A stretch of 64,000 nt of DNA from Candidatus Nomurabacteria bacterium. GTDB taxonomy: Bacteria > Patescibacteriota > Minisyncoccia > Phycocordibacterales > UBA9973. Below, piece by piece: positions 3,285 to 12,487 of this stretch. The notes beneath the pieces were generated by a model. That model was not told the origin of the DNA and did not search any database. It saw only the letters and a program-made list of their open reading frames with translations. The translations under genes were made by a program, and so were the position numbers. The first letter of the stretch is position 1; each line of letters opens with the position of its first letter. The stretch lies in NCBI GenBank assembly GCA_016199805.1, contig JACQGC010000004.1, positions 19,816 to 83,815 on the forward strand, in the 5' to 3' direction.

Positions 3285-3707
3285 CTATTTTACTTCTATC
3301 CCCATACTTCGGGCGGAGCCGGCGATGATATTGATTATGCCTTCGTCGTCTTTGGCATTCAGGTCAACTAATTTTTTCTTTCCTATTTCCAGAGCTTGAG
3401 CTCGGGTGATTTTACCCACCTTGGTGGTGGCGTTCTTGCCGGAACCCTTTTCCACTCCAGCAGCCTTTAGAATAAGGCCCGTAGCGGGAGGAGTTTTGAC
3501 GACGAAATCATAGCTGCGGTCTTCGTAGACGGTAATAGACACACCGACTTTGTCTCCGGCCATCTTGGCGGTTGCAGCGTTAAACTTGGTGACGAAGTCA
3601 CCGATGTTTATACCGGCCTGTCCGAGGGCAGGACCGAGCGGGGGTGCCGGGGTTGCCTTGGCGGCTTGGATTTGTAATTTAATTTTTTTGGTTATTTTCT
3701 TTGCCAT
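3285..3707 (-). CDS. rplK: 50S ribosomal protein L11
   Basis: [18 protein letters not shown] signature; downstream of nusG. Confidence 0.98.
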
Positions 3708-3814
3708 CCCAGTACTAAAATTTTTATTAATAATTAACTAACTTAATCTATACTATTTTGTCCCATTTGTCTATTTTTCTTTATATTGCCTATGTAGAAA
3801 TTTAGTACGGGACA
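3706..3814. repeat. start-codon-abutting inverted-repeat element, copy A (rplK)
   Basis: ends ATCCCAGTACTAAAATTT ... AAATTTAGTACGGGACA, shared with copies at 4368 and 12374. Confidence 0.8.
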
Positions 3815-3823
3815 AGTATGATT

Positions 3824-4369
3824 TTATATCTTTTTTATCTGTAAAAAGTCGAGTTCAACCGGAGTTTCACGACCGAACATTGAAACCAACACTTTTACTT
3901 TTCCTCGGTCTTGGTCTACGGAGTTTACCTTACCCTCCAGTTCCTTGAATGGACCATCGGTAATGCGAACCGTCTCACCAATCTCCATTTCGATATTATG
4001 TTTGGTGGTACCGGCATCCATCTTTTTGAAAAGATAATCCACTTCTTCCTTTTTGAGAGGCACCGGATTTACTCCCGCGCCGACGAAACCGGTCACTCTG
4101 GGAGTGTTTCTGACTACATACCAGGAATCATCCGTTACAATCATATCTACCAACACGTAGCCGGGATATATCTTTTCTTCCACTTCCACTCGCTTGCCAC
4201 CTTTTATCTTTATTTTCTTTTCAATCGGAACGATGACGTTGAAAATTTTGTCATTCATGCCAAGAGAGTCTATGCGCTGCTTCAAATTACGTAGAACAAC
4301 GTTCTCGTATCCGGCATAAGTGTGTATGGCGTACCAATTTCTAATTCCCTCGTTTTCTTGTTTTGACAT
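3824..4369 (-). CDS. nusG: transcription termination/antitermination factor NusG
   Basis: WYAIHTYAGYE NGN domain, KOW motif, MFGRETPVEL. Confidence 0.98.
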   Translation of the reverse strand: MSKQENEGIRNWYAIHTYAGYENVVLRNLKQRIDSLGMNDKIFNVIVPIEKKIKIKGGKRVEVEEKIYPGYVLVDMIVTDDSWYVVRNTPRVTGFVGAGVNPVPLKKEEVDYLFKKMDAGTTKHNIEMEIGETVRITDGPFKELEGKVNSVDQDRGKVKVLVSMFGRETPVELDFLQIKKI

Positions 4370-4440
4370 CCCAGTACTAAAATTTTAATTAATAATGTTT
4401 ATCGTTATGCCCCGTAATCAAAAATTTAGTACGGGACAGG
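4368..4440. repeat. start-codon-abutting inverted-repeat element, copy B (nusG)
   Basis: ATCCCAGTACTAAAATTTTAATT ... CCCGTAATCAAAAATTTAGTACGGGACAGG; ends near-identical to copy D. Confidence 0.85.
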
Positions 4441-4448
4441 TTTGATTT

Positions 4449-4634
4449 TTAGCCTATGATTTTCTGCAAGACTTGTGAAAAAATAAAATCCCAAATCCCC
4501 AAGTAATAAGCTACTACTACGGACAAAACAATGACTATCAAAGTATAGTATAAAGTTTGGTTCCTGGTCGGCCAAATTACGTGTTTGAGTTCTGTTTTTG
4601 TCTCCTTAAAATACTCGGTTATTTTTGATCCCAT
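4449..4634 (-). CDS. secE: preprotein translocase subunit SecE
   Basis: ELKHVIWPT motif plus single TM; upstream of nusG. Confidence 0.95.
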   Translation of the reverse strand: MGSKITEYFKETKTELKHVIWPTRNQTLYYTLIVIVLSVVVAYYLGIWDFIFSQVLQKIIG

Positions 4635-7372: not shown

Positions 7373-8647
7373 TCAATGTCCCAATGTAAAAAACATCGCC
7401 ACTGCCGCTGCCCCCATAAGCACAAAAGTACCCCAGACTAGTATGTTTGATACATTACCACTCTTGTGTTCACCCATGATTTTTTCGTTCCTGGCTATCT
7501 TGCCGATTATAAAGATAAGTGGAACGGCGGCTACGCCATTGAATACAGCGGTATAAACCAAGGCTTTAATCGGGTCTATGCCAATGAAATTTATCATCAA
7601 GCCGACAATGGTGGCGATAGTGATGACTCCATAAAATCCATGAGCTTTTTTTAATTTCAAATTCAAACTTTCTTTCCAATTTAAAGTTTCGGCGACGGCA
7701 TAAGAAGCGGAAGCGGAAAGCACCGGCACGGCCAGGAGTCCGAGCCCGATGACTCCGACGGCAAAAATCAACTTGGCTAAAAATCCCGCATATGGAAATG
7801 TATGCACCAAGGGCTCCAGGGCTTTGGCCGCGTCCGCGGCGGTGGCGATATTGGTTATGCCATGAGTGTTTAGGACTGTGGCAGCAACGACGATGATACA
7901 CCATGTGGCTATTTCCGAAGACAGCATCCCGACAAAATTATCAATTCTAAGATTTTTGAGAAAAGATTTTGTAATATGTGTCTCGCCGTGTTTTAAGAGG
8001 TGCTTAGCTCGTTCTTCTTCCACTTCTTCGGACGCTTGCCAAAAAAACATATATGGGGAAATAGTCGTTCCGAAGACACCAGTAATGATAAAAAGAAAAG
8101 CAAAACTCAATTCAATATGCGGAATGAAGGTGGCTTTTAATATCGTCAACCAGGGTTGTTTGACTAAAAATAAAGTCAAAGGATAAGCGAGCAAAGAAAA
8201 AGCCAGCCATTTCAAAATCTTGGCATATTTTTTATAGGAGATAAATATTTCCAGTGACAAAATCAGGGCGGTAAAAAAAAGTGTCAGCACTGTCAGGTTG
8301 ATTGGCAAAACAAGCTGCGCGGCGGCCGCCATCGCCCCCAAATCTGCTCCGATATTGATCGTATTGGCTAAAACAATAAGGACGACTGCCGCATAAAGCA
8401 TTTTCTTGCTGTAATTTTCTTTAATCACGGCGGCAATTCCTTTGCCAGTTACCGCCCCGATTCTGGCGCAAGCCTCCTGAATGGCGGTCATAAACGGCAA
8501 TAGCAATAAAGCTGTCCAGAGTTGCCCATAACCAAATTGCGAACCGGTCTGCGAATAAGTGGCGATGCCCGAAGGGTCATCATCCGCCGCGCCGGTAATA
8601 ATCCCCGGCCCCAGTTTTTTCCAAAAGCTTTTTCTCATATATTTCAT
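7373..8647 (-). CDS. NRAMP-family divalent metal transporter
   Basis: GPGIITGAADDDPSGIATYSQ.G and GTTISPY motifs; many TMs; start overlaps the RT stop (ATGA at 8644-8647). Confidence 0.9.
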   Translation of the reverse strand: MKYMRKSFWKKLGPGIITGAADDDPSGIATYSQTGSQFGYGQLWTALLLLPFMTAIQEACARIGAVTGKGIAAVIKENYSKKMLYAAVVLIVLANTINIGADLGAMAAAAQLVLPINLTVLTLFFTALILSLEIFISYKKYAKILKWLAFSLLAYPLTLFLVKQPWLTILKATFIPHIELSFAFLFIITGVFGTTISPYMFFWQASEEVEEERAKHLLKHGETHITKSFLKNLRIDNFVGMLSSEIATWCIIVVAATVLNTHGITNIATAADAAKALEPLVHTFPYAGFLAKLIFAVGVIGLGLLAVPVLSASASYAVAETLNWKESLNLKLKKAHGFYGVITIATIVGLMINFIGIDPIKALVYTAVFNGVAAVPLIFIIGKIARNEKIMGEHKSGNVSNILVWGTFVLMGAAAVAMFFTLGH

Positions 8648-9639
8648 TTTAGCATTTTCTGCAATTTATATGCATTCCCATGTTTCAACATCCCCAAATA
8701 AGATTGAATCGTTGCTGGTTTCTGGCTATTTTTCACATTCTTAAGCATTCTCCTTTCCGTGCTAGTCCGCAAAACTCTATGCTCAGGAAAATGTACCCAG
8801 CCAAGAAAATCCACACCAGAAGCAATGGTTTTAATATAAACTTTATCTGGGTGCATTTGTAATTTTAATTTGTTTTCCAAAAATTCTTCCATTTTTTCTA
8901 ACACATTTTCTAAATACTTTTTGTCTTCACTCAAAACAACAAAATCATCAGCATATCGTATGTAATATTTCACTTTCAATTCTCTTTTTGCAAACTGGTC
9001 AAATTCATTCATATAGATATTTACTAAAAGTTGAGAAGTTAAATTACCAAGCGGTAGACCTTTTTGCATATTTACGCTATCGCGCATATATGCATCTGTG
9101 TAAAAACTGTCTATCACTTGTGAAAGTAGCCATAAAATATATATGTCAAAGACCGTCTTTGACAATATTCCTTTTAAGATTTGATGATCAATATTCGCAA
9201 AGAATTTTCGGATGTCGCATTTTAATACAAGGCAAGACCTTGTACTGTTTTTGGAAACTTTAAAAATATAGTCTTGAAATCTATTTATTGCTTTATGGGT
9301 GCCTTTGTTTACCCTGCAGGAATACGAATCATTTATAAATTTGGAGTCAAAATATTCATACAGTTCTTGGTAAATTAAATGGTGAAGCAATCTGTCTCGT
9401 ACTGTAGCTTTATGGATTATTCTTGGTTTGGGGTCAGAAATATTGAAAGCTGTGTAACCTCCGTGAGTATATGTTTTGTTTTTTAAATCATTATGTAGAT
9501 CGAGAATATTATCCATCAACTTAGCTTGAAATAGAATCACGTCTTTCCTATCTTTTTTATCATGTAAAAATTCCTGCCAAGCTTTGAGCAGTTTTTCTAC
9601 AGTTATGATATTATCGTAAGTATGCATAAATTGTTTCAT
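8644..9639 (-). CDS. DGR reverse transcriptase
   Basis: KPRIIH...RDRLLH, LKCDIRKFFANIDH, GLPLGNLTSQ (DGR-type SQ), YIRYADDFV, GVDFLG; 331 aa with no maturase or endonuclease tail. Confidence 0.95.
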   Translation of the reverse strand: MKQFMHTYDNIITVEKLLKAWQEFLHDKKDRKDVILFQAKLMDNILDLHNDLKNKTYTHGGYTAFNISDPKPRIIHKATVRDRLLHHLIYQELYEYFDSKFINDSYSCRVNKGTHKAINRFQDYIFKVSKNSTRSCLVLKCDIRKFFANIDHQILKGILSKTVFDIYILWLLSQVIDSFYTDAYMRDSVNMQKGLPLGNLTSQLLVNIYMNEFDQFAKRELKVKYYIRYADDFVVLSEDKKYLENVLEKMEEFLENKLKLQMHPDKVYIKTIASGVDFLGWVHFPEHRVLRTSTERRMLKNVKNSQKPATIQSYLGMLKHGNAYKLQKMLK

Positions 9640-10006
9640 ATTTCTCGGACCCCCCCCCGCAGCGCCTTCAGCGCTTTTAAAAACAAAAACCGCCTACTCT
9701 CTTTGGTTTAACATATATAACGATTTTCCGAAAGCGCATAGATACACCTTGGGTGGAAAGATTGAAGATTATTTCCTCGGGTTGTTGGAAAACATTTTCA
9801 TTTCTATTTATCTACCGCCGGAAACTAAAATTCCCCGACTTATTATCGCAATTTCTAAACTTGATGGAGTTAAGTTTTTTCTACAAATCGCTTGGGAAAA
9901 TAAATGTATTAGTAATGAAAAATATTCCCAGCTTTCAGAAAAATTAGATGAAATTGGAAAAATGCTTGGTGGTTGGAAAAAAGGCCTAGAAAAGAAAACT
10001 CCCTGA
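9622..10006 (+). CDS. avd: DGR accessory variability determinant Avd (four-helix bundle); 5' end out of frame at C9 tract
   Basis: YSLW...FPKAHRYTLGGKI...LDGVKFFLQIAWE...LDEIGKMLGGW; first in-frame start is TTG 9749 inside the conserved region; ATG 9622 is one base out of frame across the C run 9650-9658. Confidence 0.8.
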
Positions 10007-10030: not shown

Positions 10031-10148
10031 AGTTTCGGAACGACGATTCGATGAGCGTACTTGGCATTCCAGACATTGCTGTTCTCAAGCGGATTGACGT
10101 TCAAGTTCAGACGACCATCGTCATACACGTTGACGTTGGCAACGAAGA
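10031..10148 (-). ncRNA. DGR template repeat (TR)
   Basis: 118-bp intergenic copy of the target 3' end, rich in AAC/AAT codons (reads FVANVNVYDDGRLNLNVNPLENSNVWNAKYAHRIVVPKL in the VR frame). Confidence 0.95.
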
Positions 10149-10430: not shown

Positions 10431-10508
10431 GTTTCAAAGTGACAAATGAAAAACCGTTCCTCCAGGTCGGCTTTTCACCTTACTGATGGAACGGTTTGAT
10501 GTTGAAAC
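10431..10508. other. hairpin/cruciform immediately downstream of DGR target stop (target-recognition candidate)
   Basis: AAACCGTTCC (10451-10460) pairs with GGAACGGTTT (10488-10497); outer GTTTCAA/TTGAAAC pair. Confidence 0.7.
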
Positions 10509-10518
10509 AGAAACAAAG

Positions 10519-11199
10519 TTACAGTTGCGGAACGACGACCCGATGAGCGCACCTGGCACCCCAGACATTGCTGAACTCAAGCGGATCGACGCCCAAGTCC
10601 AGACGACCATCGCCACACACGCTGACGCCGGCAACGAAGAAGCCGCCGTTTTCCCCCTCAAACAGGAAGAAGGTACCGTAGCCCTCTGCACGAAGATACT
10701 CGCGGTTGCGAGGATCTCGACAGAATGCCACGATTTGCGACTCCTGCCAGCAGAGACGTTTCAGATTCTCGCCGAAGCCTCCGAAGACCTGTGCGTAAGT
10801 ACCGTCTTTGATCATGTAGTAGACGGCTAGGACGGTTTTTTTCGTTGCCTTGCAGACTCCACGCTTCGCGGCTCCGTAGATGCCCGCATTGAAAACGTCA
10901 TTTGCTTCTGCCAGCGTCTCCTTCCCGTCGGTTTCCGCGAGCTCAATTGTGCGATCGGCAAACAAACGCTTGAGCCGCCCGACCACGTTCTCCGCGAGCT
11001 CGGCGAGAATAGTCTTCACCGTAGCTTTCACCACTGCCGCGATTTTATCACCCTGAGTCAATACCCGCTGAAAGTTATCGCCGTGGAGCACCCCGTTGGC
11101 GGAGAGCTCGATTACTGCCTCGTCTACTACCTTGCGGGTCGCAGACGCCACAACCGTCATCAACTGCTCTTTTCTTTCGAGTGTAATCATGCTGGGCAT
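10519..11199 (-). CDS. DGR target protein with C-terminal variable region (predicted CLec-like fold)
   Basis: last ~39 codons match TR; AAGGA RBS upstream; no obvious signal peptide. Confidence 0.92.
   Translation of the reverse strand: MPSMITLERKEQLMTVVASATRKVVDEAVIELSANGVLHGDNFQRVLTQGDKIAAVVKATVKTILAELAENVVGRLKRLFADRTIELAETDGKETLAEANDVFNAGIYGAAKRGVCKATKKTVLAVYYMIKDGTYAQVFGGFGENLKRLCWQESQIVAFCRDPRNREYLRAEGYGTFFLFEGENGGFFVAGVSVCGDGRLDLGVDPLEFSNVWGARCAHRVVVPQL
10523..10640 (-). repeat. DGR variable repeat (VR)
   Basis: 100/118 identical to TR; all 18 mismatches lie opposite TR adenines. Confidence 0.95.
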
Positions 11200-11336
11200 G
11201 TTATCATCCTTTTCTGCTAGATAACTACGTATCCCGTAGTCATAGCCAGGAAACGCCTAAAATTAAGCATCTTTTGGCTATGACTACTATTTTGCAAGTA
11301 ACTTTTTAAGGAACAATATATCTTTATATAATACAC

Positions 11337-11931: not shown

Positions 11932-12375
11932 TTATTTTAATTCCAAACTTCTGTGACCTTTTTCTTTATGCGAAATATAGATGTATCGGGCATTGGATGG
12001 GATAACACCTGAAACATTTTCCGGCCACTCAATGAAAACTATGTGTTCTTTATTGCCGATAATTTCTTCCCAACCCAGATGTAATAATTCTTTTTCATTT
12101 TTCAAACGATATGCATCAAAATGATATAAAAATTTATATTTTTTTGATTTAATCTTGTATTTTTTAAAAATAACAAAAGTCGGGCTTTTGATTTTATCTT
12201 TTAGGCCAAGGTGTTTGCCGACTGCTTGCGTAAAAGCCGTCTTGCCCGCGCCCAAATCTCCGGACAAGGCCACCACTAAAGCGCCTTTTTGCTTGGCGCT
12301 GGTTTTTAAAATTTTCTCCAGAAATATCTTGGCTATTTCCCCGGTTTCTTTGGTGTTTTTTGAAATCTTTTTCAT
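11932..12375 (-). CDS. tsaE: tRNA threonylcarbamoyladenosine biosynthesis ATPase
   Basis: GDLGAGKT, SPTF, HFDAYRL and IEWPE motifs. Confidence 0.95.
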   Translation of the reverse strand: MKKISKNTKETGEIAKIFLEKILKTSAKQKGALVVALSGDLGAGKTAFTQAVGKHLGLKDKIKSPTFVIFKKYKIKSKKYKFLYHFDAYRLKNEKELLHLGWEEIIGNKEHIVFIEWPENVSGVIPSNARYIYISHKEKGHRSLELK

Positions 12376-12446
12376 CCCAGTACTAAAATTTTAATTTATA
12401 AACCCTATCTTTATTACCCGTAATCAAAAATTTAGTACGGGACAGG
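12374..12446. repeat. start-codon-abutting inverted-repeat element, copy D (tsaE)
   Basis: ATCCCAGTACTAAAATTTTAATT ... CCCGTAATCAAAAATTTAGTACGGGACAGG. Confidence 0.85.
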
Positions 12447-12487
12447 TTGCTTTCATATTAACATATTTTGGTGTATTATCTTAAGAC

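Follow-up and report, generated by a model that had tools for sequence, protein, structure and literature searches.

A conserved simple-sequence repeat near the start of avd as a likely phase-variable switch on DGRs of CPR bacteria

The DGR in the window, a 64,000-nt stretch of DNA whose close homologues bear the name Candidatus Nomurabacteria, carries a run of nine cytosines (C9) that splits the body of avd from its probable start codon. This C9 run is a conserved repeat and most likely a heritable ON/OFF switch on Avd that works by slipped-strand phase variation, set to OFF in the assembled sequence. We infer the switching from what was observed: the anatomy, the conservation of the repeat at its site, its variable length, three different frame states and a downstream gene that is intact.

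The window element is a complete DGR, with target, VR, TR and reverse transcriptase (RT) on the minus strand and avd on the plus strand. Its features are as follows:

8644..9639, minus strand: DGR reverse transcriptase (RT), 331 aa, with its own ATG downstream of G9
9606..9614, plus strand: putative extended −10 element (TG-n-TATTAT), 7 nt before ATG 9622
9617-9619, plus strand reading: TAA, read from the sequence
9622..9624, plus strand: probable avd start ATG, antisense to an RT His (CAT) codon
9622..9711, plus strand: 29-aa dead-end ORF from ATG 9622 at C9, by translation
9650..9658, plus strand: C9 simple-sequence repeat in the avd 5' coding region, G9 on the RT strand; putative switch
9659..10006, plus strand: intact Avd body of four helices (Pfam bAvd, predicted fold)
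10031..10148, minus strand: template repeat (TR), from the TR/VR alignment
10523..10640, minus strand: variable repeat (VR), 18 mismatches to TR in 118 nt, no gaps
10519..11199, minus strand: target gene (ORF), 226 aa, with the VR at its 3' end

All 18 mismatches between TR and VR lie at TR adenines. The RT matched RVT_1 (E 7e-26) and adjoins the TR and the bAvd gene; in an NCBIfam search its best matches were under cut-off and no DGR-specific RT model scored. The avd frame matched Pfam bAvd (E 8.6e-15, 55.6 bits, cut-off 40) and scored 64.5 against NCBIfam DivGenRetAVD, under the cut-off of 80. The predicted fold of the frame 9620-10006 has four helices (residues 14-34, 38-64, 67-93 and 99-126; pLDDT 89.9) and matches Bordetella Avd 4DWL (TM 0.79 by query, rmsd 1.4). 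This match came from the fold search, and the Avd profile gave no match to PDB sequences at E 0.01. For the target protein, profile searches gave no credible named family, and its look-alikes are unnamed Minisyncoccota proteins. A search for an IMH or hairpin after the VR found a stem at about 10451-10497 that folds with z −1.28. The order TR-(avd)-RT, with avd reversed between TR and RT, is architecture B3, and since this published architecture makes up 90% of the CPR DGR set of Wu et al. 2018 (PMC5758913), the layout of the window DGR is ordinary. Upstream of the target gene, at 11236-11287, there is also a 25-nt inverted repeat, with related sequence in other contigs of the sequencing runs.

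The reading frame of avd was then related to the tract. The initial annotation had placed the C9 run at 9650-9658, between ATG 9622 and the Avd body, and it is present there. The avd frame is open from 9620 to 10006 (128 codons), and its first ATG, GTG or TTG is TTG 9749, while the frame of ATG 9622 ends at the stop 9709-9711. By arithmetic on the sequence, C8 joins the two into a 127-aa Avd, as had been claimed, and C11 gives a 128-aa Avd; C9 and C10 are both out of frame. The run is the only G/C run of at least 9 in the genome (753,363 bases) and the longest there. A second assembly, a Logan contig from run X1 (possibly the source sample), reads C10 and differs from the window over 2701 nt by one extra C and no substitution, which does not bear out a mis-assembled C8; the RT called on a Logan contig of equal length (7631 nt; P0125) also carries G10. 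The tract length thus differs between assemblies (C9 and C10), and biology and read noise are inseparable in this look at within-population length heterogeneity, as it consists of two contigs that possibly share reads. Neither of these two assemblies of the exact window strain has an in-frame allele, and an in-frame relative (P0124) sits in the window Avd's own 90% cluster.

The conservation of the tract was examined in related elements. We collected 301 loci, which gave 215 Avd matches in head-to-head orientation with an RT; removal of short flanks and exact duplicates left 202 junctions, and removal of two with a bad RT anchor left 200, including the window element and two other elements of the same genome. 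A repeat was present in 161 of the 200 junctions, about four in five, consisting of 149 poly-C runs and 12 dinucleotide repeats. The poly-C for which the initial annotation had proposed a survey is therefore conserved in related DGRs (149/200). The C-runs are 7-14 long with a mode of 9-10, and one of them abuts an N gap. The dinucleotide repeats, (CT)n, (CA)n or (AG/GA)n, occupy the same slot on several separate branches and span 8-38 nt, with only 4 units at two loci; six of the 12 are out of frame. As background, G/C runs of at least 7 occurred in 12 of 15,674 80-nt windows taken from other parts of the related loci. The ON state, with an in-frame ATG from which the full N-terminus is read, was found in 50 of the 161 repeat-bearing junctions versus 39 of the 39 repeat-free ones, so that every out-of-frame (OFF) locus carries a repeat. 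Only one pair of loci at least 88% identical differed in repeat length, L289 and L299, with (CT)8 OFF and (CT)6 ON.

These counts bear on whether the tract is a homopolymer assembly error and all these avd genes are truly in frame. Two assemblies of near-identical DNA do differ by one C, and all of the data are metagenome assemblies. This reading would, however, require errors in 111 of 161 assemblies, and neither window assembly is in frame. Furthermore, dinucleotide repeats of 8-38 nt behave alike, a C8 within a 500-codon frame of this genome leaves that frame unbroken, and the retention of a repeat at one position would be left unexplained. We regard assembly error as extremely improbable.

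Several observations point to ATG 9622 as the site of avd initiation. An ATG is present at the equivalent place in 111 of the 161 repeat-bearing loci. The RT His codon antisense to it is CAT in 111 and CAC in 1 of the repeat-bearing loci, against an RT background of 902:686. The frame from this anchored ATG to the repeat is open in 104 of 109 loci, versus stops in 98 and 90 of 109 in the other two frames; just upstream of the ATG, the same frame has stops in 41. In repeat-free loci that have the anchored ATG it is in frame in 9 of 9, and natural in-frame Avd proteins start there, for example P0124 (MNKSSHIVLPPPAAPSALLK).

Of 120 loci with the ATG, 102 have a TAnnnT at the place of 9606-9614, as do 43 of the 80 that lack this ATG, a pattern partly forced by RT amino acids. 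Genome-wide, −10-like hexamers (TAnnnT) peak 6 nt before the ATG (94 of 439 long ORFs, with 34 at 7 nt and about 20 typical elsewhere). Given this peak and the TG-n-TATTAT 7 nt upstream of ATG 9622, a near-leaderless avd mRNA made from the putative −10 is plausible; a −35/−10 promoter scan did not report a site before ATG 9622. Many genes of this genome may likewise be leaderless, with no SD enrichment and the TAnnnT peak 6 nt before ATG.

Alternatively, translation of Avd could begin at TTG 9749 or at one of two in-frame non-canonical codons, ATA 9626 and ATA 9638, in which case the C9 would simply encode Pro codons and the gene would be on. Relatives L007, L028 and L003 have an ATG at or near the position of ATA 9638, the NCBI-sourced protein P0004 was called from ATA 9626, and a polyproline N-terminus is common in the family. 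Against this, the RT start codon dictates an ATN at 9638, which falls in the avd frame only when the locus is in the +1 state. Every repeat-free relative has an ordinary ATG, and the upstream ATG is under synonymous constraint, is followed by an open frame and lies in frame in repeat-free loci. As for TTG 9749, it is residue 44 of Avd, and a start there would, on the predicted fold, remove helix 1 (residues 14-34) and part of helix 2; the suggestion that Avd works from this codon is thus disfavoured. Across the 111 OFF loci, an in-frame GTG or TTG was available in 40, only ATA, ATT, ATC or CTG in 52, and no alternative start at all in 19, which also argues against initiation of this kind. We consider it very unlikely. 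The 40 loci with GTG or TTG might nevertheless bypass the repeat and make a nearly full-length Avd, which counts against a clean switch; the window avd has no GTG or TTG bypass, and ATA only.

The run could instead act on the RT strand, as an RBS, an RNA element or a promoter spacer between the divergent genes, with the avd frameshift a side effect. The G9 does sit 11-19 nt upstream of the RT ATG (CAT 9637-9639), as initially annotated, that is 10 nt from it, and since the RT and avd 5' ends overlap, any element there touches both. The suggestion that G9 serves as an RBS for RT was nevertheless not supported: a spacing of 5-13 nt was found in only 50 of 127 loci, and in this genome SD-like words precede starts no more often than in the control (31/440 versus 40/440), so that such words appear unused. 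In 134 of 149 loci, 32-41 nt separate the end of the C-run from the conserved helix 1 Tyr; the spacing to the avd anchor has an SD of 5 nt, whereas that from tract to RT ATG ranges from 1 to 106 nt with an SD of 14 nt. The fixed distance to Tyr and the variable distance to the RT ATG indicate that the tract belongs to avd and not to an RT ribosome site. In addition, the substitute repeats read (AG)n, (TG)n or (CT)n on the RT strand, and breaking a needed gene in two thirds of lineages would be costly. A role confined to the RT strand is in our judgement highly improbable.

In some lineages, the repeat may nonetheless gate the RT as well as avd. The RT lacks its own start after the repeat in 18 of the 161 repeat loci, which are scattered over the tree, and 17 of these have an open RT frame. 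Fifteen of the 17 have an ATG upstream of the repeat that shares the avd codon register, compared with 21 of 93 loci whose RT has its own ATG, so in these 15 a single repeat length would switch avd and RT on together. Such matched registers favour a DNA-level switch over independent slips. A comparison of avd offset with RT offset across all repeat loci was flat (24/17/22) and was discarded, the signal being confined to RTs without their own start. In the window element the RT starts at an ATG of its own, with no open ATG upstream, and its frame is independent of the tract. In three elements without a junction repeat, a frameshifting repeat lies in the RT loop before the G-x-P-x-G-N motif:

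L033, same genome, contig C14: (GA)10 at 2398-2417 in the RT loop; avd at 1498-1853, with an internal TAG
L059: G11 in the RT loop
L302, one of 20 hand-picked regions: (GA)6 in the RT loop

L033 may be decaying, as its avd also has a stop. Loci obtained from RT searches are the best-scoring ones, so this sample of RT-loop repeats is biased against broken RTs. The third avd/RT pair of the window's genome (L032, contig C3) has no repeat and an in-frame ATG, so that one genome contains both gated and ungated elements.

The behaviour of the repeat was followed on a FastTree tree of 187 loci, built from the Avd core and the RT N-terminal half with the repeat region excluded. Repeat presence was clustered on this tree, with 17 changes versus 34 in shuffles (0 of 300 shuffles as low). 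Frame state was unclustered (46 changes versus 47 shuffled; 114/300), and so was C-run length (71 versus 74; 64/300). As far as this tree can tell, the pattern is that of a mutable site that is kept while its state changes fast. The anchored ATG was at offsets 0, +1 and +2 in 28, 53 and 30 loci, respectively. The Avd core was intact in 110 of the 111 OFF loci. TR/VR pairs were found in 93 of 111 OFF, 44 of 50 ON and 31 of 39 repeat-free loci; the median number of non-A TR/VR mismatches was 1, 1 and 0, respectively, and the mutated-A fraction was equal (0.54). Because the Avd core is intact and TR/VR are clean in the OFF loci, decay is unlikely. That ON and OFF loci are equally clean would also be expected under a constant leak, and the correlation between frame state and VR divergence that the initial annotation had suggested looking for did not appear (P 0.59 and 0.94).

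The three states were not equally frequent. In 98 C-run loci with an anchored ATG, ON was rarer than expected from the run lengths (22 versus 33, P about 0.009) and the +1 state commoner (47 versus 33.5, P about 0.003), P values that are overstated because relatives are not independent. The +1 state was found in 14 of 23 loci of the window's own clade. The ON deficit and +1 excess fit selection for OFF, with ON usually left through expansion, but they are also compatible with a partly functional +1 state.

This excess bears on a recoding throttle, in which a +1 ribosomal slip at CCC-C (or RNA polymerase slippage) would produce low constant Avd and the DNA length would matter little. Programmed +1 frameshifting is known at CCC-N proline codons, and the CCC-C codons of the window likewise lie in the zero frame of ATG 9622. 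Besides the +1 excess, the intact avd and clean TR/VR of OFF loci are in line with a throttle, and so would be the lack of tRNA-Pro(GGG) among the 39 tRNAs found; that set is incomplete (Asn and Asp are also absent), and the missing tRNA was set aside as evidence. Homologs, however, show no fixed offset or motif of the kind expected at a programmed +1 site. The offsets and the repeat type vary, 30 of 111 loci would need −1 and not +1, and (CT)n, (CA)n and (GA)n repeats occupy the same slot. Frame state shifts freely on the tree, and matched RT and avd registers would be needless if each transcript slipped independently. There was also no stimulatory RNA structure downstream (z +0.38), a weak point since many +1 sites need none. 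Taken together, a throttle seems an unlikely account. The proposal that the tract controls avd therefore holds in part: the tract splits avd from its ATG and likely phase-varies Avd, but the main mechanism is not a programmed +1 slip, since loci occur in all three frames and a dinucleotide repeat can stand in for the C-run. Given that the +1 state is over-represented, such a slip may add a leak.

Without mismatch repair, slips in repeats go unrepaired. Searches of this genome, which is 99% complete, recovered no MutS, MutL or NucS, and slips in the tract would accordingly escape repair. MutS was present in only 8 of 201 genomes of the class. A review mentions in passing that CPR have mismatch repair genes (PMC10221324), a remark that disagrees with our MutS search of this class. 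As a hint only, coming from a single lineage, the one family with MutS over cut-off (f84, 7/7) had this DGR RT in 0 of 17 genomes versus 128 of 401 overall.

Some further features of the genome were recorded. Possible additional contingency loci are (GA)6 at C1:15647-15658, C8 at C7:47711-47718, and G8 at C13:7413-7420 and C14:25433-25440. In the incomplete tRNA set, ARAGORN reported a tRNA-Ile with anticodon TAT, a tRNA-Ser(ACT) and only two CAT tRNAs. A repeated intergenic element (CATCCCAGTACTAAAATTTT, partner AAAAATTTAGTACGGGACAGG) lies at 3680-3734, 4342-4449 and 12348-12455 of the window, flanking starts or ends of what we take to be rplK-like, nusG-like and tsaE-like genes.

The preferred mechanism, phase variation of avd, would work as follows. 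Replication slippage would add or remove C's in the tract. Most cells would make no Avd, which would leave hypermutation off and lock the target variant they currently have; full-length Avd, and with it mutagenesis of the target, would be confined to a minority carrying C8 or C11. Switching would presumably be reversible within a population, and OFF by default presumably beneficial. For the BPP-1 DGR in E. coli, avd nonsense mutations cut activity to background, about 1e-9 (PMC12875486). By analogy, CPR DGRs would also depend on Avd, and DGR activity would be lost in the OFF state.

We lean, if only slightly, towards a wider proposal: that CPR without mismatch repair have put their DGRs under a stochastic repeat switch (on both strands in some lineages), re-invented in several chemistries and positions and held mostly OFF by selection, giving heritable bursts of mutagenesis after which good variants are locked. 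If true, this would be the first general genetic control mechanism for DGR activity. It would speak to the open question of how DGR mutagenesis is weighed against loss of fitness in the cell; a 2024 preprint states that the mechanisms regulating mutagenic retrohoming still await discovery (10.1101/2024.11.15.621889). Many CPR avd genes, and some RTs, that are called as truncated or with odd starts are then probably switch states and not decay. Since tract length and VR state lie about 0.9 kb apart, the two can be phased on long reads, which offers a cheap test in existing metagenomes.

Slipped-strand phase variation is itself classical, and translational phase variation at dinucleotide repeats is known from Helicobacter; the novelty lies in its application to a DGR, in repeats that are interchangeable and in gating on two strands. 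A literature search, with supplements and Paul et al. 2017 outside its scope, returned no description of repeat switching of DGRs. Paul et al. 2017 is said, with about an even chance of this being so, to point out poly-G tracts at the 5' ends of CPR RTs as possible sites of phase variation; in that case the new part would be the assignment to avd, the statistics and the dual gating. The B3 DGRs of Wu et al. have the same layout as the window element, and the passages of that paper that describe it mention no repeat or frameshift at the avd start (PMC5758913). Bordetella BPP-1 shares the Avd fold and A-specific TR-to-VR mutagenesis but has avd-TR-brt on one strand, and 54 of the viral loci that we fetched have the RT downstream on the same strand.

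The closest likeness is to simple-sequence contingency loci. The phase-variable tracts of C. jejuni (cj1139, cj0031) have a modal length of nine, with G8 mostly inserting and G11 mostly deleting (PMC3401435). As at those loci, the avd tract is a G/C run of about 9 near a gene start that varies in length and shifts the frame. More generally, a 5' coding repeat of about eight or more units that changes the frame, and length polymorphism with ON and OFF alleles among relatives, are both seen here. Like hosts of contingency loci, the window genome has no detectable MutS or MutL. The avd tract differs in lying in the overlap of two divergent genes, so that it would gate both in some lineages, and in that the case for switching comes from comparing sequences. 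It differs also in what it would gate: not a surface structure or a methyltransferase but a subunit of a mutagenesis machine, which would make it a mutation-rate switch placed on a mutator.
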